A DNA stretch of 64,000 nt, from the IMG/VR virus record IMGVR_UViG_3300017971_000004, positions 64,001 to 128,000 of that record; one strand, given 5' to 3'. How positions within the stretch are numbered: position 1 is the stretch's first letter; every line of letters begins with the position of its first letter. Below are positions 1 to 19,078 of the stretch, in pieces. The position numbers and the translations under genes are program-made. This stretch comes from a virus. Taxonomy: Duplodnaviria; Heunggongvirae; Uroviricota; Caudoviricetes. A model generated the notes under the pieces. That model ran no database searches, was not told where the DNA came from, and worked only from the letters and a program-made list of their open reading frames with translations.

Positions 1-63
1 GCGTCGCGTTCTTCCTTGGTCTCGTAGCGCCCGGTGTCCGGATTCCAGTAAGGTCCACTCATC
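1..63 (-). CDS. hypothetical protein, N-terminal 21 codons only; gene continues leftwards beyond window start
   Basis: reverse complement of 1-63 reads ATG AGT GGA CCT TAC TGG AAT CCG GAC ACC GGG... (MSGPYWNPDTGRYETKEERD), open to the window edge. Confidence 0.4.
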
Positions 64-76
64 TTGAATCTCCTGT

Positions 77-385
77 TCAACTTCCTCTCTTCCGAGACCG
101 GTAGCGCTTCACCCGCGCCAACCCCTTGGCTCGCACCCGATCCCGGTACTCCTTCAGCTCCGCCACCTGGGCGCGGAGCTGCGTGTTCTCCTTTTCCAGC
201 TCGGCGATGCGTGCCGGCACGCAGATCGTCTCGCCGTCAACCACGACGTTCCCGTTGGGATCCTGAGAGCACTTGCCGTTCTCGAACTCGCCAACCGTCT
301 TGCAGTAGCGCGGCACCCACGACGGGCAGTTCCGCGACGTGCACCGCGCCACCCCGTCCACCAGCTTCGGCTGAACCTCGGGCAC
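77..385 (-). CDS. hypothetical protein with C-terminal coiled-coil/basic tail
   Basis: ORF track 102 aa, GTG start, plausible composition (ELEKENTQLRAQVAELKEYRDRVR). Confidence 0.5.
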   Translation of the reverse strand: MPEVQPKLVDGVARCTSRNCPSWVPRYCKTVGEFENGKCSQDPNGNVVVDGETICVPARIAELEKENTQLRAQVAELKEYRDRVRAKGLARVKRYRSRKRGS

Positions 386-685
386 TCAGCGCTCCTCGAC
401 CAGCTGGGCCACGACTACAGGCTCCAGGCTGCATGGCTCACACAACGTAATCTCCACCGGCTCCATCAGCGGCTCGGTCATCTCTTCGTTCGGTCCCATG
501 ATGTTGGCCAGCAGGGCGTTCCCACCGAGCATCCCGGTCAGGTGGTCCTGCCGCACCACCGCGTCCCGTTTCACCCCGTGCCGCTCGATCTTCAAGGTCC
601 AGAAGATGGGCAGCCCGGCGTGCCCGATGGGTTTCCCGCAGCTCGCGCAGATCGCTCGCTTCCTCAGTTCGTCTTCACGCATCTC
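386..685 (-). CDS. hypothetical Cys-containing small protein (start taken at internal MREDELRK..., upstream part of ORF 386..844 is Arg/Ser-rich junk)
   Basis: protein-like composition only from MREDELRKRAICASCGKPIGH onward. Confidence 0.4.
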   Translation of the reverse strand, partial: EMREDELRKRAICASCGKPIGHAGLPIFWTLKIERHGVKRDAVVRQDHLTGMLGGNALLANIMGPNEEMTEPLMEPVEITLCEPCSLEPVVVAQLVEER

Positions 686-959
686 AATCCTCCCGCTTCC
701 AGCCGAGCCTCTCCAGTCTTTCGACTTCCGCCGCCACCTCCTCCTTGCTGTCGTAACGTTCGATTCCGACGTAGGTGAGTATCGCGTTGCCCGGCACATC
801 GTAGACGACTTCCTCGATCTGATACTCGCCGTCACCGTCCACAATCGTTAAACCCACGAACGGCGACAGCGGCATGTCGACCTTCAGCACCATCCTCGCG
901 TCCGTGCTGCAATAGCCGAACTTCTCGCAGCTGAGCCTCAGCTTGATCTCCACCTTCAT
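684..959 (-). CDS. hypothetical protein
   Basis: 91 aa ORF with balanced composition, abuts downstream gene. Confidence 0.5.
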   Translation of the reverse strand: MKVEIKLRLSCEKFGYCSTDARMVLKVDMPLSPFVGLTIVDGDGEYQIEEVVYDVPGNAILTYVGIERYDSKEEVAAEVERLERLGWKRED

Positions 960-985
960 TTCAGTCCTCCCGAGCTGCCAGGACC

Positions 986-1441
986 TCAGAGCGTCCTGAT
1001 GTCCTCCGTCATCTTCAGAAGATCGATCTCCTCTTTAACTGCGAGAATCGTGACCTTCGTCTTGCTGCCGGGTGGCGTCGTCAGCCTGATGAGCTTCTTC
1101 TTTCTGAGTGCCTTGAGTGCTCGGGAGACAGTGCTGCGGTCACAACCGATCCACTCGGCGATGTCGTTAATCGGTACCTGCATCGATGCCGAGTTGATCT
1201 CGGCTGCCATGTTCCAGAGATAGATACCGACGTCGAGAGTGCGACCCTTGGCCCGAGCGGCGCGCCGGAACCAGTTCATCGGGAAGTTCTCTAGCCGTCT
1301 TGAGTTCTGGAACAACCGTGGCACGATGCCTCTGGATCGTTCCAAAAGCATGTTTTCGTACTTATCGGAGAAGTAGTTCAGCTCGTTGCAGAGTTGGCCC
1401 AGCGCCAACTTCGTTTCGGCATATGGAGAGATCGGTTCCAT
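986..1441 (-). CDS. winged-helix/HTH DNA-binding protein (putative transcriptional regulator)
   Basis: C-terminal segment DIAEWIGCDRSTVSRALKALRKKKLIRL resembles MarR/GntR-type HTH. Confidence 0.5.
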   Translation of the reverse strand: MEPISPYAETKLALGQLCNELNYFSDKYENMLLERSRGIVPRLFQNSRRLENFPMNWFRRAARAKGRTLDVGIYLWNMAAEINSASMQVPINDIAEWIGCDRSTVSRALKALRKKKLIRLTTPPGSKTKVTILAVKEEIDLLKMTEDIRTL

Positions 1442-1442
1442 C

Positions 1443-1796
1443 TCAGTCCTCCCGAGCTGCCAAGATACGGAGCGTATCGAGGTCCTCGATGACCTCGGCC
1501 ACCCCCACCATCAGCAGCCGCCCGTCGAGCCTCTCGGTGCGCGGCTCGTACTTCCGGAACAGGTGGTCGATCTGGTTCTTGACGCGCCGCAGCACGAACT
1601 TCAACGGGTCGGGCGCATGGTGCTCCACCGAAGATGCCTCGACTTCATCTATCGGCACCACCGTCAGCCCCATCTTCCGAAGCTCGGGCTCCACGTAGGC
1701 CGTCACCCAGTGCCGGCTGGTGCCGAAGCACTTGAATGCCCGCTGGAGCGCGTTCTTCAGGTCCGCCTCGATACTTGAGTGCAAGTTCTCCGACAT
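1443..1796 (-). CDS. hypothetical protein
   Basis: 117 aa ORF immediately downstream of a sigma70-like promoter at 1829-1860. Confidence 0.5.
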   Translation of the reverse strand: MSENLHSSIEADLKNALQRAFKCFGTSRHWVTAYVEPELRKMGLTVVPIDEVEASSVEHHAPDPLKFVLRRVKNQIDHLFRKYEPRTERLDGRLLMVGVAEVIEDLDTLRILAARED

Positions 1797-1828
1797 CTGC
1801 TACCTCCCATATTCACACATAGACCCTC

Positions 1829-1860
1829 TCTCAATATACTAAAAGCCCACGGGTGTCAAG
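1829..1860 (-). promoter_or_regulatory. sigma70-like promoter (minus strand: TTGACA - 17 nt - TATTGA) upstream of gene 1443..1796
   Basis: plus-strand tgtcaa at 1854-1859 and tcaata at 1831-1836; same architecture as promoters at 19.07, 27.13 and 30.26 kb. Confidence 0.45.
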
Positions 1861-1896
1861 TTCGAAGTTCAGGGCCGACCTCAACTTCATCTTCCC

Positions 1897-1966
1897 GGCA
1901 ACTTCGTCTCTCAAACGACTTCGTCTTTCAACGACTTCGTCTCTCAAACGACTTCGTCTCTCAGGG
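1897..1966. repeat. tandem repeat, 4 copies of a 17-bp unit CGACTTCGTCTCTCAAA
   Basis: read directly: caacttcgtctctcaaa cgacttcgtctttcaa cgacttcgtctctcaaa cgacttcgtctctcag. Confidence 0.85.
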
Positions 1967-1970
1967 CCAA

Positions 1971-2490
1971 GATGGGACCCGATGCTTTTTGTCGAACCCT
2001 CTCCAACCAGTTTCCACTTGCCAGAATGCTGGTGGGTACATCCGAGGAGTTGGTGACTTCAGTTCGAGTTGGCCAGACTCGGTTCGGATCGGCAACATCG
2101 TTCAACATGAGAACCTTGTCCAACCTTGGCCGAGGTTGCCGAAGTTCTCAAGTTGATGAAGTTGACTTCGTCACATCGGATGAACGTCGGCAATGATTGG
2201 CCAGGATGGGACCCAATTCTCCAGCTGGAGAAGTCGGCCAACTTCGTCTCCCAGAGCCAAGATGGGACCCGTACAAGTTCGGAAGATGGGACCCAATCGA
2301 AGTTCGGGAACTTGGTCGATATGGGACCCAAGAAAGCATAGAAGAAGCCTTCTTCGGGGGTTGGGGAAGTCGAAAAGGATCGTTCGAAGTTTTTGAGATG
2401 ATAGGGGTTGCCAGGATTGTCCAATGATTATGTGGAGTTGGACGGTATTGGTAGGATTGGAATCCGATATATTATCTGGGGATGGGACCC
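1971..2490. repeat. iteron-like array: six direct copies of (G/T)ATGGGACCC at about 1971, 2205, 2261, 2285, 2320 and 2481
   Basis: motif gatgggaccc read six times in the same orientation within a non-coding stretch. Confidence 0.8.
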
Positions 2491-3419
2491 AAATCTATGT
2501 GATCCAAAGCCCGGGATCGCGATCCGATAATCAGCTAGATCGACCCCCGGGGTCCAATAATCCCCAAGATCCGCCGAAATCAGCATAATCTTCGGCAAAC
2601 TTAGGAAGATTATCCAACTTCCAGCAAACTTCAGCCCAACTTCAGGACCAGCCGCCTTGTCGGATTGTCAACACTCAGGAAGATTCACCCTTGTCAGATT
2701 ATCAATAGGCAACACGATGGATTATCGGATTGACTTGCCCAACACCTGGCCAACTTCAGCCCAGGTTGGCGAGATGAATGCGCCCATCTTGGCCAGGATT
2801 GGCCCGAACTCGGGAACCTCTACAACCTATCCCTGGAGCCCAAGCTCCTTAAGCACGGACAGGACTTCACGGAGCTGCTTCGAGGAGCCGCCCAGACCAG
2901 CTCTGCGCCCCGCTACCAGCCATCGCCAGCGCCTGCCGGCCTTCCAGATGTACACCATATCGAACCTCCTCGTCGAGCCTATCAATCCTTCCCAAGGCGG
3001 GTCAACTTTTCGGCTCTCCGTTGGTCGGAGACCACATCTTCCGAACTTCGACCAAGTTCGGGAAAGGTTGGTGAAGATGGATCACGATCCGTCTGACGAG
3101 AGTGTATCGATTCTTGATGGAATTGCGCAATCGTTAACGGTCGGGCAAGTTGGGTGTTGACGAATCGTCAACTCTATTTCGAATATCAATGCGGTTCGAG
3201 GATGGATTTTCGGATTAGTTCAATGTTTGCGAGAGGTTGATGAAGTTCGGCTGGGGAAGTTGCCGAAGATTGTTCAAGGATCGCGGATTTTGGATCGGAT
3301 TGGGACGGATCGCGATCCGCGCGATCCGCTGGTCTGGTCGATTCTCACCTATATACTGAGAGCCTACTTGACGGGTACTTGATGGCCGCTTGCTTGCCAA
3401 TCCCGACCCAACCTCACCA

Positions 3420-3740
3420 ATCTCCGTCCACTTCGTTCCAATCTCGGCAACTTGCTCCCTCTATCCAATCCTTGGCCACTCCGTTCCGAACTTGGCAACT
3501 TCGAACCAACCTCATCTATCTGTCCAACTCCTTGGATGTACCCAGGCGAGTTTCTGGTGGGGGAAGTATCTACCGACTTCATCAAGCTTGCCGACTTACT
3601 CCAGCCGGCCAATCCTTGTCCACTTCGTTCGAGTGAAGCAACTTGGTCAACTTCATCCCTTCGAGCTAACTTCATCTATCTGGCCAACTCGAACTGAAGT
3701 CACCAACTCCTCGGATATACCCAGGCGAGTTTGGCTGATG
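3420..3740. repeat. imperfect direct repeat of about 140-160 bp (units about 3420-3560 and 3610-3740)
   Basis: shared segments ccacttcgttc..caacttg, cttcatctatctg(t/g)ccaactc, caactcct(t/c)ggat(g/a)tacccaggcgagttt. Confidence 0.7.
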
Positions 3741-4092
3741 AGCTATGAGGAGAGGGGATGTACTTACCATGGAGAGAATCTGCCGCGCCATCCTCCTTTT
3801 CAACCACCTGATGTATCGGGTGCAATCTTAGCTTGGACCGACGAAGTCGTTAGAACTTCGAAGTTGAAGTTCAGAAGTTCGGGACTTCGAGGTTCAGCAA
3901 GTTCGGGCCGTCATACAGACGGTTGCTCCAGGGTACCGGTCACGAGGATCTGAGAGACGAAGTCGTGACTTCCCACATTCCTTCGACCGCTTCGTCCACG
4001 GGATCCTTGAACTTGGGTTTGCTCCAGCTCCGGGCCGCGAGCTGGGCTCGAAGATCAGCCAGGTCTGTATCTTCGTCGTGCTCGCCTACCAA

Positions 4093-4535
4093 TCACTCGT
4101 CCTCTTCATCTTCCCAATGTTCGTCGAGTCCTTCGTTCCAGATCTCCAGCTGACGCTCGGGCTTCAGAAGTTGGTTTTTCGAAAGAACCGCATACTCCTG
4201 CTTGAGACGCTCCTGGCTGCCCTGCTGACGGCGCGCGAGACGATAAGGGTAGAACTCCACCGGCAGCTCCGGCAGCCCGCAGAGGCGGCGGTGCAGCTGC
4301 TGGACGCCCCAGGAGGGCTCGTACCGGTCGCAGACGTGGAGAACTTCATCAATGGGATTCGGGAACTTCATCTTCTTGAGATCTTCGAACTTCTTGGAAG
4401 TATCGAGATCGTAGAAGCAGTATACCTCCTCCTCGAAGATCTCCTTGTCGCCGATGATGCCCATCCTCGTGTCGACCGCCCGGTGCTCGCAGGTGGCGCA
4501 GCATTCGGGGAACGTCGGTCTCGGCTTGCCCATGA
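4093..4535 (-). CDS. hypothetical protein (start at internal MGKPRPTFPECCATCEH...; longer ORF 4093..4800 has Arg-rich junk N-terminus)
   Basis: ATG at about 4533-4535; acidic C-terminus EHWEDEEDE. Confidence 0.5.
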
Positions 4536-4589
4536 CCCCTCCTACAGCTTGGTCGCGACGATATGAATGAACATCGCATCGTCTCCATT

Positions 4590-5009
4590 TCAACCGTTCT
4601 CCTTCGATTTCTCCAGTTCCTTCTCCAGCTTGTCGATGGCGGCGTCCACCTTCTTCCCGTAGGCCCGCATCCGCTCCAGGTAGGCCTCGACGGCGGCTCG
4701 CTCCTCCCGGTACAGATCGGGCTGCTGGTACTTCAGGACGCCCGTGATGCCGCCCTGCTTCTCGGTCCTGAACCTGCCGGCACCGATCATCATCGCGCAC
4801 AGGTCGAACGGGGACGCCGACTGCTCTTCGCCCTGGAGATAGAGCGTCAGCCCGGTCTTCTCGCTCTTGTGGACCGTGAAGACCTGCTTGTGCTGGGAGA
4901 TGTAGCTGTCGCAGATCTCCACGTACTCCAGCACGCTGAACTGAGGAGAGCCGGTACTCTCGTCGATGAGATAGAGCTTCTTGGGGCGGTCTTTCTCGGG
5001 TTCGGACAT
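4590..5009 (-). CDS. hypothetical protein
   Basis: 139 aa ORF, good composition. Confidence 0.55.
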   Translation of the reverse strand: MSEPEKDRPKKLYLIDESTGSPQFSVLEYVEICDSYISQHKQVFTVHKSEKTGLTLYLQGEEQSASPFDLCAMMIGAGRFRTEKQGGITGVLKYQQPDLYREERAAVEAYLERMRAYGKKVDAAIDKLEKELEKSKENG

Positions 5010-5018
5010 CCTTTCCTC

Positions 5019-5318
5019 CTACTGCAAGCCGTTCAGCCGTCCCAGCAGCTCGTCCGCGAGCGCCAGGTAATGAGGCACGAGGTTTTGATTGCCGTCCGGG
5101 TTGCCGTTGGAGTTCCCGGCGAGCGCTTCTCTCCAGAAGGTGAGGGCCTCCCGGAAACCTTCGACCATCTCCGTGATCTTGGACCGCTGTTCGTCCGAGG
5201 GTTCGAAACCCTGTCGAAAGTCGACTAAGGTGTCTTCCAGCATCGCCAGCGTGGCCCCGAACTGGCCGTGGATTTCCATGACGCGGTCGATGGCTTCCTG
5301 CTTGGTCAGCTCAGTCAT
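5019..5318 (-). CDS. hypothetical protein
   Basis: 99 aa ORF. Confidence 0.55.
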   Translation of the reverse strand: MTELTKQEAIDRVMEIHGQFGATLAMLEDTLVDFRQGFEPSDEQRSKITEMVEGFREALTFWREALAGNSNGNPDGNQNLVPHYLALADELLGRLNGLQ

Positions 5319-5640
5319 GTTTCTCCATCTCGAAGGTGATCACGAGCGCACCCCTGTCGGAGATGGTCGCCCTCGTTTTCACTCGGATCACCGAGACCGC
5401 CAGCTTGAAGTGAAGCAGGCTCGGATCCTCCTCGTCGACCCAGACGGGACATTCGTAGTCCTCCAGCCCGAGATCGACCGTGGCGAACCAGGCCTCTCCG
5501 ACCGGCGTCTCCTCCCAGGGCAATACCAGCGCGCCCCAGTCGGGACCGTATACCTTCCCGAGATCCGCCGGGTTCACCAGGATCGCGTCGCTCCCGGGCG
5601 TGTCAGGCCAGAGATCCGGAATCAATTGATCGTTCGACAT
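5311..5640 (-). CDS. hypothetical protein
   Basis: 109 aa ORF, overlaps neighbour by a few nt as in operons. Confidence 0.55.
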   Translation of the reverse strand: MSNDQLIPDLWPDTPGSDAILVNPADLGKVYGPDWGALVLPWEETPVGEAWFATVDLGLEDYECPVWVDEEDPSLLHFKLAVSVIRVKTRATISDRGALVITFEMEKHD

Positions 5641-5641
5641 C

Positions 5642-5770
5642 TCAGCTCTCCTGCTCTTCTCCTCCGTAGATGACCATCACCGGCTCGATCTCTTCGCCGG
5701 CTACGTCCTCGATGTATTTGATGCAGGCGATGCAATAATCATCAGCATCACTGAAGATTTCTTTTTTCAT
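5642..5770 (-). CDS. small hypothetical protein (42 aa, MKKEIFSDADDYCIACIKYIED...)
   Basis: internal ATG at about 5768-5770; upstream ORF extension is Arg-rich junk. Confidence 0.3.
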   Translation of the reverse strand: MKKEIFSDADDYCIACIKYIEDVAGEEIEPVMVIYGGEEQES

Positions 5771-6114
5771 ATCGTCTCCTTGAACCGTTCCAGCTCTCCG
5801 TCGATCTCGCGTATCCGAAAAATCTGACCTTCGATCATTCCTGCCAACCGGAACATCTCTTCTTCGAGCATCTCGTTGACGGTCGGCTCCTCCCACGACC
5901 AGATCCACCTCCAGGCCAGCCGCTGGAATCCCCGGAGATGGGTGACGCACCAGCTCTCCGCTTCGTCGCGTTCTTCCCAAAGCATGAACCTTTCGACTTC
6001 GCGCAACAGGTCCCAGCCGAGACTCTCCAAAGCTCCTGCCGGCACGGCTTGGTACAGGTGGGCTCCGATCATCTCCTTGAGGAAGTCGGCTTCGAGGATT
6101 GGTTCAGAGTTCAT
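5767..6114 (-). CDS. hypothetical protein
   Basis: 115 aa ORF, ATGA-type overlap with downstream gene. Confidence 0.5.
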   Translation of the reverse strand: MNSEPILEADFLKEMIGAHLYQAVPAGALESLGWDLLREVERFMLWEERDEAESWCVTHLRGFQRLAWRWIWSWEEPTVNEMLEEEMFRLAGMIEGQIFRIREIDGELERFKETI

Positions 6115-6332
6115 TCCGGAACCTGCACCACGGTCGTCCGGTCGTAGTCAGGTTCTCCGGTTACGGCGATGCGCATCTCCGGATCCTTGGGCTGGCGACC
6201 GCCGGTCACCGTCTCCATCGCACCGTGGTCCCATGCTTCCGCCTTGTCGCGAGCCTCGTCCTCGTCTTCGGCCTCCACTACCCTCCAGACCTCGACAGTT
6301 ATCGGGACGCTAATCTCGAACTTGGGCATCAT
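6111..6332 (-). CDS. hypothetical acidic protein
   Basis: 73 aa ORF. Confidence 0.5.
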   Translation of the reverse strand: MMPKFEISVPITVEVWRVVEAEDEDEARDKAEAWDHGAMETVTGGRQPKDPEMRIAVTGEPDYDRTTVVQVPE

Positions 6333-6550
6333 GGTTCTCCTTCTTGGCGCACTGCCGACACTGCTTATGCTTTATCTCCGCGAGGTCCTTTTCGGCCTCG
6401 GCAGGATGACAAACCTTCTCATGACCGCATTCCAGGATGAAGAAGACGCTTTTACCACGTTGGATACGATCAACCACCAGGCGTTTCGGGCCACCTTTCG
6501 GTCGGCTGCGGGGACGGTCCTTGCGCCGTCTGTGTCCCCTCGCGCTCATC
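6310..6550 (-). CDS. small basic zinc-ribbon-like protein (start at MSARGHRRRK...)
   Basis: CGHEKVCH..CRQCAKK Cys pairs; trimmed from ORF 6310..6672. Confidence 0.4.
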
Positions 6551-7160
6551 AATCCTCTTCCGGATGCGCTTTGCACCATTCGCAGTCGCAGTCGGGATCG
6601 TCGTGCCAGTTGATCCAGGCGATATCGTCGCCTTCGAGGGAGACGCCGCCAGGCATCTTGCACTCCGAGCACCGAACTTCGTCACCTTCGTAGAACTCCT
6701 CGTCGCTCGGGCTATCGGTGAGGATCTCTGGGTCGCCCCCGCAGTATGGACAGCTGTCCCACTCGATCATCACCCAGCGCTTGCCGAAGGCGTCTTTCTC
6801 AGCTGAATAAGAAGAAGAAAAAACTTTGTTTTTCTTGACTTTGCTCGACTCGCGCACCTTTTGCTTGAACTCTTCGATGATGTCGAGCCGGTTGGTGACG
6901 GGATTGCAATAGTCTTCTCGAAAGCTGCGAATCTCCTCGGCCATCTTGACGGCCACCTTTCGCCAGTCGAGGTTTTCGGTATCGGGGCGCAGGAAAGCGG
7001 GCTCGCATTCGCTGAGCGCGCCCACGATGCGGTCGGCGATCTCCTTGCGCTCCAGCAGCTTGACGCCGTAGCCAGCGAGAACGTCCACGATGAGCGTCCA
7101 CGATGCGCTGTAGAGTAGGTTTTTCGGACGAGTTCCAAGGGTAGGTTCAACCTTCTTCAT
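6549..7160 (-). CDS. hypothetical Cys-rich (zinc-binding?) protein, start at MKKVEPTLG...
   Basis: CPYCGG...CSECK...CDCEWC motifs; ATG at about 7158-7160. Confidence 0.5.
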   Translation of the reverse strand: MKKVEPTLGTRPKNLLYSASWTLIVDVLAGYGVKLLERKEIADRIVGALSECEPAFLRPDTENLDWRKVAVKMAEEIRSFREDYCNPVTNRLDIIEEFKQKVRESSKVKKNKVFSSSYSAEKDAFGKRWVMIEWDSCPYCGGDPEILTDSPSDEEFYEGDEVRCSECKMPGGVSLEGDDIAWINWHDDPDCDCEWCKAHPEED

Positions 7161-7338
7161 GGCTCGTCTCCTCTCCGTACTGTCGCTCGATGTGCATTCC
7201 GGCAGCCACCGCCCGCTCGACTCCCTCCAAATACTCCTTGGCCGTGAAGACATGGCCGCGCAGTACCTGGATCAACCACATGCCGACCGCTCCGAGTGCG
7301 ATTCCCGATGCTACGCACATGATCTCATTCATCTTCAA
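7147..7338 (-). CDS. small membrane protein
   Basis: 63 aa with hydrophobic segment VASGIALGAVGMWLIQVL. Confidence 0.4.
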   Translation of the reverse strand: MKMNEIMCVASGIALGAVGMWLIQVLRGHVFTAKEYLEGVERAVAAGMHIERQYGEETSHEEG

Positions 7339-7552
7339 CTCCTGCGGGCTCGATGTGAGCCCATGCGCCGACGAGCACCCGGTTCCACTTCCAGCTGTCG
7401 GCTTCGATCTCCTCGTGTTCTTCGTCGGTCATTCCCCACCAGAGATGGTCCAGTTGGCCGAGCAGCTCGTCCTCTTCGTCCTCGGTGAGAACTTCGAGGA
7501 ACTGGTTGATCAAGTACGCGTCGTGCAGCTTCTGGTACTCAGTCTTCATCTG
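7325..7552 (-). CDS. hypothetical acidic protein (MKTEYQKLHD...)
   Basis: C-terminal third of ORF 7325..7882; ATG overlaps TGA of the upstream frame. Confidence 0.45.
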   Translation of the reverse strand, partial: QMKTEYQKLHDAYLINQFLEVLTEDEEDELLGQLDHLWWGMTDEEHEEIEADSWKWNRVLVGAWAHIEPAGVEDE

Positions 7553-7882
7553 GATGAGGATCGTCCAAGTAGGGATCCTGCTCCTTGAACTCACGCCGCA
7601 CCTCTTCGATGCGGACGTACTCGACGGTGCCCTCCTCTGCGCCTCCTTGACCAGCTCTCGCTGATCGGCACGGAGCTTCGAATACTTGTAGTACTTGTAC
7701 TCTTCGATGACGCGTCGAAGCGTTTCCTCATCGCTCTCGTGAACAAGGCGAACTCCGGCCATCAACGCGCTGGTGAGCTGTGCCAACTCCAACTCGTGTA
7801 AGATTCGCTTCAGATCAGCTGTTAGTTCAGCCATCCTCATTGGGATCGCCCCCTTCATCTGCCGGCACGTAGCCGATGGCAT
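7540..7882 (-). pseudogene. hypothetical gene with apparent frameshift near 7640-7650 (N-terminal part in one frame, C-terminal AEEGTVEYVRIEEVRREFKEQDPYLDDPHPDED* in another)
   Basis: hand translation of both frames across 7541-7650; protein-like sequence switches frame. Confidence 0.35.
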
Positions 7883-8132
7883 TCTTGCCGAGCATCACCG
7901 TGCGCTCCACCGGCACTCCTAGCCAGCGGGCCATCTGCTTCTGCTTCTCCTTGCGCCTCCAGACGAAGTGACCGTGGATGAGCGCGATCACGACGCAAAT
8001 CAGCGTGAGCGCGCCCTGGCAGAACCACCACCAGAACTCTCGGTCGGATTGCAGCACAAGCCCCATGATAATGGCGAACGCGAGCCCGATGAGCCCGCAC
8101 CAGACGGGCGAGTAGGCGATCTTGATCTTCAT
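7827..8132 (-). CDS. membrane protein, 2 predicted TM helices
   Basis: IAYSPVWCGLIGLAFAIIMGLVL and ALTLICVVIALIHGHFV hydrophobic stretches. Confidence 0.45.
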   Translation of the reverse strand: MKIKIAYSPVWCGLIGLAFAIIMGLVLQSDREFWWWFCQGALTLICVVIALIHGHFVWRRKEKQKQMARWLGVPVERTVMLGKNAIGYVPADEGGDPNEDG

Positions 8133-8560
8133 TCCGCAGGCCTTCCGTTGATGAGCTTGGCTACATCCAAGAATCCCAGCCAACCTCCGCCAACTACTTC
8201 GGCGATAACGTAGCGAGGCTTCTCCTCGTCAGGCTCGTAGATCCGAAGGCCGGTAATGAAGTAAGCGATGCCGGTCTCGATGTTCTCGTCGGTGATGATC
8301 TGCTGGATGCGCTGCTCGATGAAGACGGTCGCTCCCTGATCGGCTCTCCGGGACTTCTCCAGAATCCCCTCGACTTGCTCTCTCGTCCAGGGAGGTTCCA
8401 CCTGTAAAGGAGCAGGACCGTACAGCTGCTGGAAGACCTGCGACATGGCCGAAGAGCGTTCCTGCTTTGACGACTCGTCGTGAGGAGGGTGCTCGGTCGC
8501 TCCGGCTATCCTGCGCCGGTACAGCTCCCTGGACTTCGGACAATCGTCCTTACAGCTCAT
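8129..8560 (-). CDS. hypothetical protein
   Basis: 143 aa ORF. Confidence 0.5.
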   Translation of the reverse strand: MSCKDDCPKSRELYRRRIAGATEHPPHDESSKQERSSAMSQVFQQLYGPAPLQVEPPWTREQVEGILEKSRRADQGATVFIEQRIQQIITDENIETGIAYFITGLRIYEPDEEKPRYVIAEVVGGGWLGFLDVAKLINGRPAE

Positions 8561-8934
8561 TTTTCTTCTCCAGCTGTAATTTTTGCAAATTCATCGACTC
8601 GATCCTTGTACAACGTCGTCCGGATCCGCTCCAATTCGCGCTCACGAGCCTCCAGGCGGCGCTGTGTTCGCCGATGAGCCTCCTTCTCGACCCGGAGGGC
8701 CTCTTCCAGCTCGGGGAGCTTACGGAGCCGCTCACGGCCTTCCTCGACGAGATTGAGTGCCGTCGCCCTGTTCGTAGTCATCAATTTCAGCTGATATTGT
8801 AAATCTGCATTACGCTTGGCCAGACCGTCGATTGTCAAGTAGAGCTTCACCCGCTCGAAGTCGCTGCCGAACAGAGGATCCTTCTCGGCTCGAAGGGCTC
8901 GCTCAACCGACTGCCGGATGTCCGAGGACATATC
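8557..8934 (-). CDS. coiled-coil protein (start possibly at 9030)
   Basis: heptad-like charged sequence LRKLPELEEALRVEKEAHRRTQRRLEARERELERIR. Confidence 0.45.
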   Translation of the reverse strand, partial: DMSSDIRQSVERALRAEKDPLFGSDFERVKLYLTIDGLAKRNADLQYQLKLMTTNRATALNLVEEGRERLRKLPELEEALRVEKEAHRRTQRRLEARERELERIRTTLYKDRVDEFAKITAGEEK

Positions 8935-8968
8935 CATGAACTCCTTGGGAATCTTCAGTTTTTCGAGC

Positions 8969-9820
8969 TTATCGTCGTCCACGATGGCCCCCTCCTTCCA
9001 AACCGAGCGCCTTGCGCTTCGCCTCTTCAATGACCTTCCAAGCCTCGTAGTAGCGGTTGAAATGGTCTTCGAGGGCCATGATGAGCCGTCCCATGTTGGC
9101 CTTGTAGAAGCCGGCGCAATTGACGCAGCCGCACTCGACGATCTTCCATTCGTCGTCGACCATGCAGACGTCCATCACGAAGGCGTCGGCGAGCTGGAAG
9201 ACCTTGACCATCTTCTCGCAGAACTCTCGGGCTGCGGGATCGATAGCTCCGCTTTGCACGACCTGTGTCCCGAGCTTGTAGAGACTCCCCGTGACGATCT
9301 CACCGCCCACCACCCAGAAGCGATACTCCTTTTGGATCTTCTTCACCGAGGCGACCTGGATGGGCGTCAGACTGCTCAGCGACGAAGTGTGGCCGTCCGT
9401 GAGCTTCCGCTGCTGGAACTCGCGCCAGCCGTCCTCGTCGAACACCTGGCCGTTGAAATCCTTGGTATCAGCGCACGGGCGGATGAAATAGGCCTGCTTC
9501 TCCCACTTCCAGTCGTCCCGGAACTTCCGAAGCTCCGAGTCCCAGTTGAGAAGATGCTCCCGGTAATGGTTGCGATACACGAAGAAGTGATGATTCGCGT
9601 TCACCAGAACGCCCGGCACCCAGTCGAACTTCTTGGCCAACCGGACCATCTTGAGCGAGCCGAACACGAAGACATCCCGCCGCTTGGTCTGAACTTCGAA
9701 GTTCTCGACGAACGGCAGAACTTTGACGACTTCCCAGTCGAGCTGAAGACGCTCCAACGTCCGCGTCAGAGCATCATACCCTTCCTCGCGGAACACGTTC
9801 TCTTGTATCACATAGAACAT
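8969..9820 (-). CDS. ATP-grasp domain protein
   Basis: C-terminal ADAFVMDVCMVDDEWKIVECGCVNCAGFY resembles the ATP-grasp metal/ATP loop; start placed at MFYVIQ (9820), just downstream of promoter -10 at 9834-9839. Confidence 0.5.
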   Translation of the reverse strand: MFYVIQENVFREEGYDALTRTLERLQLDWEVVKVLPFVENFEVQTKRRDVFVFGSLKMVRLAKKFDWVPGVLVNANHHFFVYRNHYREHLLNWDSELRKFRDDWKWEKQAYFIRPCADTKDFNGQVFDEDGWREFQQRKLTDGHTSSLSSLTPIQVASVKKIQKEYRFWVVGGEIVTGSLYKLGTQVVQSGAIDPAAREFCEKMVKVFQLADAFVMDVCMVDDEWKIVECGCVNCAGFYKANMGRLIMALEDHFNRYYEAWKVIEEAKRKALGLEGGGHRGRR

Positions 9821-9833
9821 CTCTTGCGCTCTG

Positions 9834-9862
9834 ACTATATAGAGGAAAGTTTCCCCTGTCAA
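9834..9862 (-). promoter_or_regulatory. sigma70-like promoter (TTGACA - 17 - TATAGT) for the ATP-grasp gene
   Basis: plus-strand tgtcaa 9857-9862 and actata 9834-9839. Confidence 0.45.
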
Positions 9863-9885
9863 GCAGACAGATCGACAGCTTCTGC

Positions 9886-10271
9886 CTACTCCGGCTGCTT
9901 CACTTTCATCCGCTGGCTCACACTCTCGATGTGGTCGATGGTCTTGCCGGCATCGTTCAAGATGTAGGCTTCTCCGTCGAACACGATGTGTGTTTCCTGA
10001 TTCCCCTTGCGGACTTCGACTACTGTCGCACCGCTCCAGCTGCTCGGGCCGGAGATGAGTTCACCTCCACGACGACATTCCGAAGGCATCAACCAAACCC
10101 CATCTTCGGGTGGAACAGGAAGAATACCGTCCTCGGTCATCCGCTCCAAGTCCTCCGAACTGAGGTACGCCCAAATCTTGATGCTGTCACCTTCGCAATA
10201 GAACCAGGGCGTCTCTCGTGGACCTCCCCAACATCTGTACTTCGAGCTGGCGTCGATCTTGATGATCATGA
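9886..10271 (-). CDS. hypothetical protein (start at MIIKIDASSKY...)
   Basis: trimmed from ORF 9886..10365. Confidence 0.45.
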
Positions 10272-10430
10272 CCTTTCTCCTTTCTGCGGCCTTCTGGCTG
10301 ACTATCTTGCTGTCGATCTGTCTGGGGATAATATACAGGATTGGGAGATGGTGGAATCGAACCACTTGCCTCGTGGAGGAGCGGGTTTACAGCCCACCGC
10401 AGGCCCAGCCTGCCTTAGAGCACCTCCCGT

Positions 10431-10519
10431 TGCACGGGGTGGGATTCGAACCCACACTGTCTCTTAAGCGTTGCCCTGGGGCCTGAACCCAGCGCCTCTA
10501 CCAGTTGGGCTACCCGTGC
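10431..10519 (-). tRNA. tRNA-Leu(CAG)-like, class II (long, poorly paired variable arm)
   Basis: hand-folded: acceptor GCACGGG/CCCGTGC, T-arm GTGGG-TTCGAAT-CCCAC, anticodon stem CTGGG/CCCAG loop TTCAGGC. Confidence 0.5.
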
Positions 10520-10557
10520 GCTATCTAGATGCTAATTAGCGTCTAATTAGCATCTGG

Positions 10558-10630
10558 TGGACAGGGACGGAGTCGAACCGCCTACACCCGGAACTTCAAT
10601 CCGGTGCTCTACCAGTTGAGCTACCTGTCC
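10558..10630 (-). tRNA. tRNA-Phe(GAA)
   Basis: clean cloverleaf GGACAGG-TA-GCTC-AACTGGTA-GAGC-A-CCGGA-TTGAAGT-TCCGG-GTGTA-GGCGG-TTCGACT-CCGTC-CCTGTCC-A. Confidence 0.8.
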
Positions 10631-10632
10631 GT

Positions 10633-10705
10633 TGCGCGTGGAGGGATTCGAACCCCAACATCCGGACCCTCAGTCCGGCGACTCTGCCAGTTGGCCTACA
10701 CGCGC
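10633..10705 (-). tRNA. tRNA, anticodon GAG (Leu-type) in a class-I-length (73 nt) body
   Basis: acceptor GCGCGTG/CACGCGC, anticodon stem CCGGA/TCCGG loop CTGAGGG; weak D-stem and 4-nt variable loop. Confidence 0.5.
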
Positions 10706-10772
10706 GTTGTGTTTCACCTGCTGTCAGCAACCTCCGTTGTCGCTCACTTTCGAACGAATCTGATCAACCAAG

Positions 10773-10846
10773 TGCGACCGCCGGGAGTCGAACCCGGAAC
10801 ATCCTGCTTTTGAAACAGGCGACTCTGCCAGTTGGCCTACGGTCGC
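10773..10846 (-). tRNA. tRNA, anticodon CAA (Leu-type) in a class-I-length body
   Basis: acceptor GCGACCG/CGGTCGC, T-arm CCGGG-TTCGACT-CCCGG, anticodon stem CCTGT/GCAGG loop TTCAAAA; D-region identical to previous tRNA. Confidence 0.5.
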
Positions 10847-10850
10847 TCGA

Positions 10851-10923
10851 TGCGTCCGCCAGGATTCGAACCTGGAACCCCCGGTGTTTAAAGCCGGTGC
10901 CTCTGCCGTTGAGCCACGGACGC
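10851..10923 (-). tRNA. tRNA, anticodon UAA (Leu-type) in a class-I-length body
   Basis: acceptor GCGTCCG/CGGACGC, T-arm CCAGG-TTCGAAT-CCTGG, anticodon stem CCGGC/ACCGG (one C.A mismatch) loop TTTAAAC. Confidence 0.45.
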
Positions 10924-10927
10924 TCGG

Positions 10928-11001
10928 CAGGAGAGCCAGGATTCGAACCTGGGTTTGAGGACTTGGAAACCTCCGTGCTGGACCGCTCGCACTACTCTCC
11001 C
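10928..11001 (-). tRNA. tRNA-Trp(CCA)
   Basis: acceptor GGGAGAG/CTCTCCT, D-stem GTGC/GCAC, anticodon loop TTCCAAG. Confidence 0.55.
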
Positions 11002-11003
11002 GT

Positions 11004-11076
11004 GGTGACCGACGAGACTTGAACTCGCAACGACCGGGGCCACATCCCGGCGCTCTACCAGTTGAGCTACGGCCAC
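11004..11076 (-). tRNA. tRNA-His(GTG), discriminator C, no encoded G-1
   Basis: GTGGCCG-TA-GCTC-AACTGGTA-GAGC-G-CCGGG-ATGTGGC-CCCGG-TCGTT-GCGAG-TTCAAGT-CTCGT-CGGTCAC-C. Confidence 0.75.
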
Positions 11077-11078
11077 AG

Positions 11079-11163
11079 CGGAGGACGCAGGGCTCGAACC
11101 TGCACCGGGATGAACCGGACGACGCCTTAGCAGGGCGCTGCGATACCATTCTGCCAGTCCTCC
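11079..11163 (-). tRNA. tRNA-Ser(GCT), class II
   Basis: acceptor GGAGGAC/GTCCTCC, anticodon stem GCGCC/GGCGT loop CTGCTAA, long variable arm with CCGG-TTCAT-CCGG stem. Confidence 0.75.
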
Positions 11164-11228
11164 ACATTAAAATTTTCCTCCATTTTCTTTAATAGTTCGG
11201 ATCCTAATTAAAACTTTCTTCAATACTG
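11164..11228 (-). promoter_or_regulatory. AT-rich (about 28% GC) spacer inside the tRNA array, candidate internal promoter or processing region
   Basis: acattaaaattttcctccattttctttaatagttcggatcctaattaaaactttcttcaatactgag in an otherwise >60% GC region. Confidence 0.3.
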
Positions 11229-11301
11229 AGTCCCGAGCCGGAATCGAACCGGCGTCTGAGGATTTGCAGTCCCCCGCTTGAACCTGCTCAGCTACCGGGA
11301 C
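11229..11301 (-). tRNA. tRNA-Cys(GCA), discriminator U
   Basis: acceptor GTCCCGG/TCGGGAC, anticodon stem GGGGA/TCCTC loop CTGCAAA, T-arm GCCGG-TTCGATT-CCGGC. Confidence 0.7.
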
Positions 11302-11304
11302 AAG

Positions 11305-11376
11305 CAGGGCCGGGCGGAGTCGAACCGCCGTACTCGGGTCCAAAGCCCGATGCTCTACACGTTGAGCTACGACCCC
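11305..11376 (-). tRNA. tRNA-Gln(TTG)
   Basis: GGGGTCG-TA-GCTC-AACGTGTA-GAGC-A-TCGGG-CTTTGGA-CCCGA-GTAC-GGCGG-TTCGACT-CCGCC-CGGCCCT. Confidence 0.7.
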
Positions 11377-11378
11377 GG

Positions 11379-11468
11379 AGGAGGGCGAGGGATTCGAACC
11401 CCCACGCCGGGACAACGCCGACGACCGCGATTTTCGAGACCGCTCCAATACCGTTCTGGCAGCCCTCC
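11379..11468 (-). tRNA. tRNA-Ser(CGA), class II; 3-prime CC encoded and abutting next tRNA
   Basis: acceptor GGAGGGC/GCCCTCC, anticodon stem GCGGT/ATCGC loop CTCGAAA, long variable arm. Confidence 0.7.
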
Positions 11469-11513
11469 GATTGGTAAATCTTTCCATCACTTAACACTTC
11501 TTTACCGTTCGAG

Positions 11514-11600
11514 CGGAAGCGCCTGGACTCGAACCAGGACCACGGGAAACCGTGCTCTCGGCCTTCCAAGCCGGGGCCTTACCGTTGAGGCTACGCTTCC
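11514..11600 (-). tRNA. tRNA-Ser(GGA), class II
   Basis: acceptor GGAAGCG/CGCTTCC, D-stem GCCT/AGGC, anticodon loop TTGGAAG, variable arm CACGG-TTTC-CCGTG, T-arm CCTGG-TTCGAGT-CCAGG. Confidence 0.65.
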
Positions 11601-11738
11601 GAACTGGAAACGATTAGCTTAGATAAAGCAGTGATTGATGCTGGATAAACGAGGAGAGACACCAGAGGCGGGGAGCCTTGGCGGTGGGGGCGATCATCTT
11701 TCCGATTCGCTTTCGACGTTTCATCGGTCTCTCCTCGG

Positions 11739-11812
11739 TCCGGGCGAGAGGATTTGAACCTCCAACCTCTAGATCCCGAATCTAGCGTGCTACCAGATTG
11801 CACTACACCCGG
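11739..11812 (-). tRNA. tRNA-Pro(CGG)
   Basis: CCGGGTG-TA-GTGC-AATCTGGTA-GCAC-G-CTAGA-TTCGGGA-TCTAG-AGGTT-GGAGG-TTCAAAT-CCTCT-CGCCCGG-A. Confidence 0.75.
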
Positions 11813-14893: not shown

Positions 14894-14933
14894 GTCATTG
14901 CCCTCCTGTTGGTGTCATTCTTGATACTCTCTC

Positions 14934-14964
14934 TATATAGCACAGAGTCTACCCGATAAGCAAG
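14934..14964 (-). promoter_or_regulatory. sigma70-like promoter (TTGCTT - 18 - TATATA) for gene 14687..14893; copy 1 of a 30-bp repeated motif
   Basis: plus tatata 14934-14939, aagcaa about 14958-14963; motif repeated at 15265-15300. Confidence 0.4.
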
Positions 14965-14973
14965 CAAATTCTA

Positions 14974-15007
14974 GATAAAAAAGGCCGATGCTCAAAAGCA
15001 CCGGCCT
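14974..15007 (-). terminator. rho-independent terminator (minus strand)
   Basis: GGCCGGTGCTTTTGAGCATCGGCC hairpin followed by TTTTTTATC in minus orientation. Confidence 0.55.
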
Positions 15008-15276
15008 GGTTAGATCTTCACATGTAGATCGCGGGCGCAACCCGCATGCCACCTCTAAGTATCCGGTACTTGAGTTAAGTACCGGATCGTGGCGCGGGCG
15101 TGTTGGTGCGCCACAAAAACCCCTTTTTTCGACTCTGATCGGTGCCGGGAGCTAGCGGCTGTCAACCGTGAGTATTCCTGATTGACTCGAAGCGCCGGGG
15201 GAGGAGGCGGCGATGTGATCTTCGAGACCAACCAAGCAAGGACACCGATCATCTTCTTTGGGTCTCCCTTTGACAC
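14975..15276 (-). ncRNA. candidate structured non-coding transcript (about 300 nt) between promoter copy 2 and the 14974-15007 terminator
   Basis: three consecutive hairpins: GCGGGCGCAACCCGC (15038-15052), 10-bp perfect stem ATCCGGTACT-TGAGTTA-AGTACCGGAT (15058-15088), GTGGCGC...GCGCCAC (15094-15120); no credible ORF. Confidence 0.3.
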
Positions 15277-15282
15277 CCTCTC

Positions 15283-15312
15283 TGTATAGCAGATAGTCCA
15301 CCACGAAGTCAA
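15283..15312 (-). promoter_or_regulatory. sigma70-like promoter (TTGACT - 18 - TATACA), copy 2 of the repeated promoter motif
   Basis: plus tgtata 15283-15288 and agtcaa 15307-15312; shares ctctct(a/g)tatagca core with 14921-14945. Confidence 0.4.
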
Positions 15313-15336
15313 GCTAATCCGAAAAAAGAGAAGCTG

Positions 15337-15634
15337 CTACAGAGTCTCATCAACGACGTTGCCCAAGGTATCCAGGGCAATGTCCTTGATGAGTTCCTGA
15401 AGCTCTCGGAAACGAGGATGAGAAGTGAACCGTTCCTCGGCTCGGGCCAAGGTAATGCCTCCTCTCGGAAGCTTGTTCCAGTCGACGGCTGAAGACCGAG
15501 GCAGCCTGCGCGGCAGCTTGCGGAAGCCCCCATTCAAGATCTGTCAAGACATCGTCCCAGTCGACCTCGAATCCTTCGCGCTCGATGCGCTCCTTCTCTT
15601 CCTGATAGCCGCCACCGAACGGATCACTCGACAT
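15337..15634 (-). pseudogene. hypothetical gene with apparent +1 frameshift at a G5/C5 homopolymer (about 15525-15529)
   Basis: N-terminal MSSDPFGGGYQEEKERIEREGFEVDWDDVLTDLEWG in one frame, C-terminal ...AVDWNKLPRGGITLARAEERFTSHPRFRELQELIKDIALDTLGNVVDETL* in the adjacent frame. Confidence 0.35.
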
Positions 15635-16178
15635 CGGGCTCCTCCATCACTTCATGGGGCTCTTCGTCAATGCGATGCATCTCGAACTCGACGCCGGCCT
15701 CGTTGCAGACTTCTTCGAAACCTTCGATCACCTTGTCAGTGTCCTCCCAGATCTCCACCCGTGTCGGCTGATGTTCCTCGATGAGTTGACGGAGCATCTC
15801 GGGCTTCCAGACTTCTGAGCGAGAGCCCTCCGGGGCGAGCCGGATCTCATCGAAGTCGAGATCTTGTTGATCGAGCAGCTCGTTGATCCGATCTTCGAAC
15901 TTCTCGAAGCGACCAGTCACGAGCACGAACGCCGCGTCAGCTGCTTGCTCCGACTCGTGAGCGTCTCGAAGAACCTTTTGCACCCACCAGTCGGTCGTGG
16001 GCTCCTCGGGCACCTGAGGCTCCTCCAGGCTCTTCTCGTTGGACCACCATCCTCGCTCGGGCCACCCTTTCGGTTTCTCGGGACTACGGAACAGAGTGCC
16101 GTCGAAGTCGTACAGATGAAGCACCTTTGCTCCCGCGAGGCGGCGGAGTCCTTGCTTGGTAATGCCGAGAACGATCAT
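15624..16178 (-). CDS. HAD-superfamily phosphatase-like protein
   Basis: motif I LYDFDGTLF, motif II VLVTGR; acidic C-terminus. Confidence 0.55.
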   Translation of the reverse strand: MIVLGITKQGLRRLAGAKVLHLYDFDGTLFRSPEKPKGWPERGWWSNEKSLEEPQVPEEPTTDWWVQKVLRDAHESEQAADAAFVLVTGRFEKFEDRINELLDQQDLDFDEIRLAPEGSRSEVWKPEMLRQLIEEHQPTRVEIWEDTDKVIEGFEEVCNEAGVEFEMHRIDEEPHEVMEEPDVE

Positions 16179-18689: not shown

Positions 18690-19040
18690 CTAGTTCTTCA
18701 CCAACCTGAGATGAGGTTTGGACTCGGGCCACTCCTTCGGAGGGGAAACAGGAGGCGGAGGGAGTGGAAACGACCACCACCAGCCGTCCCAATCCTTGTT
18801 GGGCTGAACTTCACCGGTCGCAGGATCGTGAGTTAACGTCACGTAGCCGGCGATGTTGCCGAACTTGTCGGCAACGAGGTAGCGCCCGATGCGTTTGGGG
18901 CGCTCTTGGCTCCAATGCCCGTTGAGATATCCAGTCCACGAGCAGGTGACGCCGTCCTGATACTGCTCGTCATCTTTCTCACGGACAACCTTGATGGGAT
19001 CTTTGGGAACTGGGGCGTTCATCTCGTTTGGATTCTTCAT
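18690..19040 (-). CDS. hypothetical protein with WW-rich C-terminus
   Basis: 116 aa, first gene after promoter at 19045-19078. Confidence 0.5.
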   Translation of the reverse strand: MKNPNEMNAPVPKDPIKVVREKDDEQYQDGVTCSWTGYLNGHWSQERPKRIGRYLVADKFGNIAGYVTLTHDPATGEVQPNKDWDGWWWSFPLPPPPVSPPKEWPESKPHLRLVKN

Positions 19041-19044
19041 AACC

Positions 19045-19078
19045 TGATAAATATCATAGAATGAGGGAGGCTGTCAAT
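19045..19078 (-). promoter_or_regulatory. sigma70-like promoter with extended core TATATTGACAG
   Basis: plus ctgtcaatat 19071-19080; minus orientation TTGACA - 17 - ATATTT. Confidence 0.45.

Follow-up and report, generated by a model that had tools for sequence, protein, structure and literature searches.

A 2.1-kb non-coding region of repeat arrays, possibly a control hub at a gene-module boundary, in the genome of an uncultivated tailed phage

The DNA analysed here is a 64,000-nucleotide stretch of the genome of an uncultivated tailed phage (positions 64,001 to 128,000 of IMG/VR virus record IMGVR_UViG_3300017971_000004), which we refer to as the window. Its only long non-coding gap, about 2.1 kb in length (1797-3939), lies between a right-hand module of replication genes with a tRNA array and a left-hand module consisting of an operon of small genes. 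Analysis of the sequence supports the view that this region is cis-acting DNA, made up of repeat arrays that resemble binding sites, and not a gene. The arrays lie upstream of a predicted promoter, and we tentatively hypothesize that the region is a control hub at a gene-module boundary, built of operator arrays. It had originally been predicted to be a replication origin or a pac/cos site; the part of that prediction that stands is a non-coding, cis-acting region of repeat arrays, while neither of the two specific functions is established.

A gap without protein-coding character

The original prediction held that no protein-like open reading frame (ORF) is present in 1800-3950, and codon usage bears this out, with one possible exception, a small gene of 43 amino acids. 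The log-likelihood per codon is -0.13 to -0.46 in the region's long ORFs and +0.22 to +0.59 in the flanking genes, while the GC content at third codon positions (GC3) is about 0.5 within the region as against 0.74-0.89 in the flanking genes. None of these long ORFs has a Pfam match. A 167-aa ORF at 2657-3160 on the plus strand, annotated by a public gene caller, is rich in Ser, Thr, Pro and Arg, an implausible composition, and looks spurious. The lower GC content reported for the region was likewise confirmed (0.52-0.53, compared with about 0.58 for the window); the lowest value for any 100 bp inside the region is 0.45.

Two short ORFs bear on the status and borders of the gap:
2827-2958, minus strand: candidate 43-aa small gene (MVYIWKAGRRWRW...), Arg/Trp-rich, preceded at 6 nt by the Shine-Dalgarno sequence GAGGAGG, GC3 0.77
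3940-4092, minus strand: 50-codon ORF, in frame and straight after the TGA of a 146-aa gene (4093-4533), with a weakly coding composition

Judged by its codons and its Shine-Dalgarno sequence, the first may be a real, if unproven, small gene; it has no family match. The second has an acidic, protein-like composition, and its final codons overlap an exact inverted copy of the 17-bp repeat described below. It could be a read-through extension, part of a split gene or a small gene in its own right, and it may set the true right border of the gap, which extends to 3939 or, if this ORF is not a gene, up to 4092.

At least four families of short repeats

Four tandem copies of a 17-bp unit, six same-orientation copies of a second motif over 520 bp, many CAACTTC-type repeats, palindromes and an imperfect direct duplication of about 150 bp had been described in the region, and each of these was found. 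The short repeats belong to at least four families, namely the 17-mer, GATGGGACCC, CAACTTC/GAAGTTG and GGATTGG/CCAATCC, to which the GGATCGCGATCC palindromes are added. The two principal arrays at the left side are:
1898-1964, plus strand: tandem array of the 17-bp unit ACGACTTCGTCTCTCAA, 3.8 copies with 91% matches
1971-2490, plus strand: six (G/T)ATGGGACCC sites in one orientation (starting at 1971, 2205, 2261, 2285, 2320 and 2481)

When up to three mismatches are allowed, seven of the eight copies of the 17-mer in the window lie inside the region, the chance expectation being 1.3 for the entire window. Five are on the plus strand (four in 1898-1963 and one at 2238) and two on the minus strand (3835-3850 and 3951-3966, the latter exact). 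The units of the array are spaced by 16-17 bp, and helical phase is kept only for every second unit (33 bp). A search for the 17-mer in other phages gave only unrelated tandem repeats.

The motif ATGGGACCC occurs six times, always on the plus strand (starts 1972, 2206, 2262, 2286, 2321 and 2482), where 0.54 copies are expected, and nowhere else in the window. With the preceding base included, five of the copies are GATGGGACCC and one is TATGGGACCC; read toward the downstream operon, the six sites are GGGTCCCATC.

CAACTTC-type sites, with at most one mismatch, number 56 in the region, whereas about 12 are expected from the rest of the window, a 4.7-fold excess. Neighbouring sites on the same strand are often 8-11 or 17-20 bp apart, which is approximately one or two helical turns, and the sites are arranged in blocks of alternating orientation. 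The palindrome GGATCGCGATCC is present at 2514-2525 and 3307-3318 and its variant GGATCACGATCC at 3079-3090, giving three GGATC(G/A)CGATCC sites for an expectation of 0.06; a further palindrome, CCCCCGGGG, lies at 2544-2552. The region shows no enrichment of GATC of the kind found in oriC or in P1 pac.

The duplication (3392-3553 and 3586-3732) is imperfect, extends over about 135-170 bp and has 74% identity in aligned columns, with insertions and deletions. We rejected a diversity-generating retroelement as its source, given that the copies differ by insertions, deletions and mixed substitutions, and likewise a CRISPR array, as the region has no repeat-spacer periodicity.

Inverted ends and two diverged modules

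On a larger scale, the two ends of the gap are collinear, imperfect inverted repeats of about 200-300 bp, which enclose an interior composed of two diverged modules of about 850 bp, each with a G-rich block, a palindromic centre and a C-rich block. The elements are:
2033-2077: left arm of a 45-nt inverted repeat, identical at 44 of 45 positions to its partner at 3679-3723, from which it is separated by 1601 nt
3679-3723: right arm of the 45-nt inverted repeat
3815-3966, minus strand: right inverted end, collinear with the left end at 1880-2077
2093-2164: 72-bp imperfect palindrome (76%) with convergent CAACTTC-type sites 8-10 bp apart
2300-2830: module 1, with a G-rich block at 2300-2480 (GAAGTTG and GGATTG sites), a centre formed by GGATCGCGATCC at 2514-2525 and CCCCCGGGG at 2544-2552, and a C-rich block at 2600-2800
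3050-3760: module 2, with a G-rich block at 3050-3300, palindromes and a 9-bp tandem repeat at 3279-3330, and a C-rich block at 3390-3740 that includes the duplication of about 150 bp

Going inward, the order at both ends is 17-mer units, a GATGGGACCC site and a 45-nt arm. At the right end the GATGGGACCC site is degenerate (3815-3833) and is accompanied by the two inverted 17-mers and by a tandem repeat of the 8-bp unit GAAGTTCA (3866-3904). A third, partial copy of the 45-nt arm is located at 3524-3544. Logan short-read assemblies break exactly within the two arms (at 2069 and 3687) and carry the intervening 1.66 kb as a contig of its own; these breaks are caused by the 45-nt repeat, an effect of the assembly graph, and are not evidence of a terminus.

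This arrangement could also be that of a mobile or invertible segment, that is, either a non-autonomous element with terminal inverted repeats of about 200-300 bp and subterminal sites, or a 1.6-kb segment that inverts between the 45-nt arms. Collinear inverted ends with multiple 17-mers recall the ends of Tn7 or Mu, the arms are 98% identical amid degenerate surroundings, and a gene for a TnpB/Cas12-like protein lies 1.9 to 4.1 kb past the window's left end. We nevertheless regard this explanation as very improbable. There is no target-site duplication and the extreme termini mismatch; no serine-recombinase motif occurs in the window or in the extension to its left; and a scan of flanking genes with Pfam and PHROGs revealed no recombinase, integrase, invertase or conventional transposase, the TnpB/Cas12-like protein being the sole match to transposase families. 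Furthermore, a long contig from ENA that spans the region keeps the arrangement of the window, a second one being reported as similar at this place, and there is no second copy of the region in 74 kb. On inversion of the middle segment as such, the assemblies speak neither for nor against, the short-read contigs of Logan stopping at the arms.

The homology of the two modules is evident from the alignment of 2377-2676 with 3212-3530, whose score is about 8 standard deviations above that of shuffled sequences. GAAGTTG and GGATTGG sites occur in the G-rich blocks and both occur in reversed orientation in the C-rich blocks, such that the strand composition flips at the palindromic centres. In the C-rich block of module 1, CAACTTC sites are spaced at 11 bp and are joined by GATTAT/ATAATC sites.

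The composition of the C-rich blocks raises the question of whether the region is the source of a non-coding RNA, for example a motif-rich, unstructured transcript from either strand that acts as a sponge for a protein. As RNA, these blocks would indeed be unusually unstructured (-14 to -17 kcal/mol per 120 nt, z >= 0), their complement is rich in AAGGAUUGG and GGAG, and TATACTGAGAGCC at 3352-3364 on the plus strand resembles the -10 element plus GAGAG of the promoter family described below. This last site lacks a -35 element, though, and the region has no match in Rfam; in a search with Rfam 15, tRNAs are the window's sole matches above the gathering score, and within the region the best match has an E-value of 0.7. 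All the structure signals are symmetric between the strands. In particular, the folding z-score at 2093-2164 is about -5 on both strands, and from this equality we conclude that such signals reflect palindromes in DNA and not structured RNA. We consider an RNA source the least probable of the explanations discussed here.

A predicted promoter and a winged-helix protein at the left edge

Our favoured reading is built on a predicted promoter at the left edge of the region, the operon behind it and similar promoters elsewhere in the window:
1833-1859, minus strand: predicted promoter P_L (TTGACA at 1854-1859, a 15-nt spacer and TATATT at 1833-1838)
1797-1832, minus strand: 5' leader of the operon, with the Shine-Dalgarno sequence GGGAGG at 1803-1808, a GAGAGAGGG element at 1824-1832 and, at 1794-1796, the ATG of the 117-aa gene
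986-1441, minus strand: gene for a 151-aa winged-helix protein, the second gene of the P_L operon
14894-15336, 18781-19096, 30217-31095 and 1824-1859, minus strand: predicted family of six promoters of the sigma-70 type

The P_L elements precede the 117-aa gene (1443-1796, minus strand), with about 30 nt between them and its Shine-Dalgarno sequence and ATG. Five further gaps between genes of the window have, on the minus strand, the sequence TTGACw, followed by 17-18 nt that end in TGn, and then TATAnn. The -10 element is followed by GAGAGrG in two of these five promoters, or in three of the six when P_L is included, and two of the promoters come after a T-run or a hairpin with a T-run. P_L has a shorter spacer than the other five and lacks their TGn, and it may therefore be a regulated promoter, or one that needs help. 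The region as a whole shows no excess of sigma-70 promoters. The tandem 17-mer array begins some 40 nt from the -35 element of P_L on its upstream side and occupies about 70-140 nt upstream of the predicted P_L start; the GATGGGACCC sites follow, at distances of about 110 to 630 nt from the -35 element. On the minus strand, the upstream operon ends without a recognizable intrinsic terminator.

The 151-aa protein matches Pfam HTH_Crp_2 (1e-7) and MarR, as well as a MarR structure in the PDB (3nrv, E=0.002). Its AlphaFold model, which was made without homologues, has a pLDDT of 55 and is of low confidence outside the winged helix. We consider this protein a candidate for the binder of one of the repeat families.

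We hypothesize that the repeats could serve as operator sites for DNA-binding proteins of the phage, the MarR-like winged-helix protein being the obvious candidate for one family. Proteins bound to the 17-mer clusters and the 45-nt arms at the two ends might pair and thus loop the 2-kb segment, by analogy to lambda CI, which loops the DNA between OL and OR. Such a looped complex would set the activity of P_L, and might also stop or filter read-through from the upstream operon.

The same 17-bp repeats could instead be bound by the adjacent winged-helix protein as the iterons of a replication origin, with the palindromic centres as sites of melting or loading. An array of tandem 17-bp units with inverted copies 1.9 kb away recalls the iteron clusters of P4 (ori/crr) and P1 (incC/incA). 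The weak similarity of the winged-helix protein to initiator, DnaD-like and O-like DNA-binding domains in PHROGs (2e-6 to 3e-3), the block of replication genes that adjoins the region and its lower GC content agree with this as well. Several observations speak against it. The DnaA box TTATCCACA, with at most one mismatch, occurs seven times in the window but not once in 1800-3960. No 100-bp block of the region has a GC content below 0.45, whereas a gap at 28958-29157 has 0.34. With their 16-17-bp spacing the units are in helical phase only at every second unit, the winged-helix protein is MarR-like and of the size of a MarR protein, and neither a helicase nor a loader gene was recognized among the flanking proteins scanned. 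An examination of GC skew, which had been proposed as a check of the predicted origin, goes against it too, as the cumulative skew declines steadily across the window without an inflection at the region. Gene orientation does not change in the window or in the approximately 8.5 kb past its left end. Taken together, we find an iteron-type origin unlikely, although clearly less so than a mobile segment or an RNA source.

Arrays of the ten-base motif in other phages

We scanned IMG/VR for GATGGGACCC followed by ATGGGACCC within 5-35 nt and retrieved 71 loci on about 64 distinct and otherwise unrelated contigs, with GC contents from 0.41 to 0.70. The reversed motif, scanned as a control, yielded 27 loci, of which about 15 are distinct; most are tandem or coding repeats. 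Nearly all of the arrays retrieved with the motif are in evidently non-coding DNA, with spacers that are unrelated and whose lengths are not multiples of three. Each array has 2-7 copies on the same strand (three to seven at 25 loci), and degenerate GGGACCC copies are frequent beside them; within 400 nt, the ratio of GGGACCC to GGGTCCC is 196:20. The consensus extends to ten bases, RGATGGGACCCR, which all six copies in the window fit. Examples, with coordinates where an array is delimited, are:
L034 6539-6725
L057 6463-6576
L058 2094-2292
L039, L053 and L071 (all six from the set L005-L075)

The arrays lie 30-400 nt ahead of the first gene of an operon, and a sigma-70-like promoter is sometimes clear in between. 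On the side toward which GGGTCCCATC reads, the genes are mostly those of the large terminase, portal, tail-fibre and virion proteins, while the opposite side has a few terminases along with primases, methyltransferases, a helicase, an integrase, an invertase and an anti-restriction protein. The polarity of the window matches, with the replication genes on the equivalent side and the motif pointing toward the next operon. An all-against-all BLAST comparison that included small ORFs found no neighbouring protein family common to the loci or to the loci and the window. In 11 of the 18 loci on whole contigs the array is within 12.5% of an end, in two of them only 13-18 nt from it, and one contig opens with a poly-C tail that lies 100 nt ahead of the array.

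In about 186 thousand bacterial genomes (GTDB), approximately three quarters of the matches to the motif are coding Met-Gly-Pro repeats, and the non-coding ones are scattered over many phyla; an assignment of hosts from these matches was uninformative. A full-text search of the literature for the motif returned only primers and unrelated sequences, and arrays of the 10-mer that recur in unrelated phages seem not to have been described before. It is possible, although we would not call it probable, that the RGATGGGACCCR arrays are a widely shared cis-element of phages, comprising sites for one conserved phage or host factor that marks the junction of replication or early genes with packaging or structural genes, and perhaps the end of the genome that is packaged or injected first. 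The 2-kb region would then be an expanded version of this element to which lineage-specific operator arrays have been added.

The arrays, chiefly those of GATGGGACCC, may alternatively be sites for the packaging machinery, or for a factor that protects or handles genome ends, in which case the region would hold or adjoin a pac site, the border of a terminal repeat or a T5-like injection stop. This possibility, which we also rate as doubtful, draws on the gene content around the IMG/VR arrays, with operons for the small and large terminase subunits (TerS and TerL) and portal or for tail and structural proteins on one side and a primase, helicase, methyltransferase or integrase on the other; on the proximity of the arrays to contig ends; on the strand bias of the motif; and on the same geometry in the window. 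It is further suggested by the resemblance of the region to a 1.6-kb untranslated region of T5 with repeats and palindromes that acts in DNA entry (bioRxiv 10.1101/866236).

As to the points that count against a packaging or end function, no terminase was recognized among 19 flanking proteins scanned against PHROGs (9 from the window and 10 from the extension); a 445-aa flanking protein has only a faint C-terminal match to helix-turn-helix domains like those of Xis and TerS. The phage is not a relative of T5, the identity of its DNA polymerase (PolA) to that of any cultured phage being at most about 30%, and the region has none of the paired DnaA boxes by which the T5 iss is defined. The arrays adjoin terminases of differing families, and cultured relatives of one of these terminases are without the motif, which makes a common terminase recognition site hard to explain. 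Finally, assemblies pass through the region, and the breaks in Logan are accounted for by the 45-nt repeat.

Transcription control as the favoured reading

We rank transcription control with looping first because this reading alone can point both to a functional element observed directly, the promoter, and to a plausible regulator encoded in the operon behind it. Under this reading, the GATGGGACCC array would be a module common to many phages that marks off the block of early or replication genes from the next operon, and a candidate binding site for a factor. Packaging or an end function is ranked second, on account of the data from other phages and the resemblance to the T5 injection stop. 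What the data show is cis-acting DNA of a protein-assembling kind at a module border; the order given here to transcription control, a packaging or end function, and replication is a tentative one.

Several findings weigh against the control hub. As an operator region, 2.1 kb of DNA would be very long. The 15-nt spacer of P_L is non-optimal, and P_L is not listed by a strict scan for the sigma-70 consensus. The 151-aa protein also has weak matches in PHROGs to initiator DNA-binding domains. In other phages the arrays adjoin terminase genes and contig ends, which a packaging or genome-end role fits at least equally well. Lastly, we found no homologous region in any related genome in searches of phages, plasmids, IMG/VR and proteins.

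The phage and other features of the window

The phage has a GC content of about 58%, and 84 of the 85 genes predicted in the window are on the minus strand. Besides PolA, recognizable genes of the window encode an SNF2 helicase, an SbcC-like ATPase and a topoisomerase-like protein. Features beyond the region are:
57841-60153: family-A DNA polymerase (PolA)
10342-11812, minus strand: 14 tRNA genes, including four for Leu and three for Ser
8969-9820, minus strand: gene for an ATP-grasp (R2K_3) protein, about 5 kb from the region
30282-30812: HNH endonuclease gene (PHROG match 1e-29) in a patch of lower GC content, with promoter-like sites on both flanks
28958-29157: 200-bp gap with a GC content of 0.34, directly downstream of the topoisomerase-like gene (29158-30216)
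L001 3960-6158: gene for a 732-aa protein, 1.9-4.1 kb past the left end of the window, with a C-terminal domain of the Cas12f1-like TNB or TnpB type

At the DNA level, blastn found nothing alike among cultured phages, and for the region itself gave no match in 50,697 phage records and 72,556 plasmids. T5-like phages are absent from the best matches of PolA. The 117-aa, 139-aa and 151-aa proteins match only themselves in IMG/VR and among 5.8 billion proteins. The R2K_3 protein is 38-56% identical to proteins of seven very AT-rich phages in IMG/VR (24-36% GC), which have this gene alone in common with the window, without synteny and without the motifs; the gene has likely moved horizontally.

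The ENA contig k141_823475 (146,827 bp) has a single mismatch to 1-10453 of the window and then runs on leftward. We rejected the idea that it is a circular genome of 146.8 kb. The window gene at 15624-16178 is found on a different contig of the same sample, which puts the genome at about 200 kb or more. In one public assembly there is a break at 10453, within the tRNA array.

The HNH gene looks like an inserted homing-endonuclease cassette. The gap at 28958-29157 is the most AT-rich spot of the window and its sole strongly AT-rich gap, and is an alternative candidate for an unwinding element or a strong promoter. The 732-aa protein matches Pfam PF07282 and, through its C-terminal domain, transposase families in PHROGs (best 1.4e-18). 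Its gene has no adjoining CRISPR array; the 380-nt gap that follows it contains (L001 6180-6415) an inverted repeat of about 24 nt, ACATGCAGTGAACAGATCTCTCGAT and ATCGAGAGATCTGTTCACTGTATGT, separated by about 190 nt.

Comparison with known systems

Phage genomes rarely contain long non-coding regions packed with repeats, and the cases that have been studied hold sites of replication, packaging or injection, such as the T5 iss, the origins of lambda and P1, pac and cos. The region described here is a well-delimited example in a giant phage without a cultured relative, and it provides candidate sites as well as a candidate binding protein. If the recurrence of the ten-base motif holds, it would give a sequence handle on module borders or genome ends in metagenomic phage contigs and would hint at an unrecognized DNA-binding factor.

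Among the closest known systems is the T5 iss, an untranslated region of 1.6 kb with a role in DNA entry. It is full of repeats and palindromes, has inverted repeats that are far apart, and in every T5-like phage carries eight paired DnaA boxes on inverted repeats (Davison, bioRxiv 10.1101/866236). Our region shares with it more than 1.5 kb of untranslated sequence, direct and nested repeats, palindromes and a pair of inverted repeats 1.6-4 kb apart; as in T5, the phage is large, of a virulent type, with a tRNA block and a PolA of its own, and the region has a block of small genes on one side and replication genes on the other. Unlike the T5 iss, it has no DnaA boxes, there is no kinship in sequence or proteins, and homologues of A1, A2 and dmp were not recognized.

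The operators OL and OR of lambda, bound by CI, and the flanking sites of phage 186 are similar in having clusters of sites of about 17 bp by a promoter, further copies about 2 kb away and an adjacent gene for a small DNA-binding protein. In our phage, by contrast, the intervening DNA is non-coding and full of other repeats, the protein is MarR-like and does not have a helix-turn-helix of the CI type, and genes for lysogeny were not seen. Split iteron origins (P1 incC/incA, P4 ori/crr and R6K) likewise combine tandem 17-bp repeats with distant inverted copies beside a winged-helix gene, but our region lacks their DnaA boxes, a stretch below 0.45 GC, a Rep protein of initiator size and a skew signal.

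With respect to the CAACTTC-type sites, the omega heptads of pSM19035, parC/ParR of R1 and pB171, and parH/ParG of TP228 offer a parallel, in which 7-bp sites about one turn apart form direct and inverted blocks upstream of promoters. The differences are that our sites are non-contiguous, that no gene for ParA, ParM or a ribbon-helix-helix protein was recognized nearby, and that the arrays extend over 2 kb and involve several motif families. P1 pac and lambda cosB, which are clusters of short repeats bound by terminase, resemble the GATGGGACCC array in having several short asymmetric motifs on one strand within a few hundred bp, and in other phages such arrays are directly beside terS or terL. 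They differ in that no terminase was recognized among the flanking proteins scanned here, GATC is not enriched, and the 10-mer is common to phages with unrelated terminases. While it has no relative or exact counterpart, the region belongs with the complex cis-acting control regions of phages.

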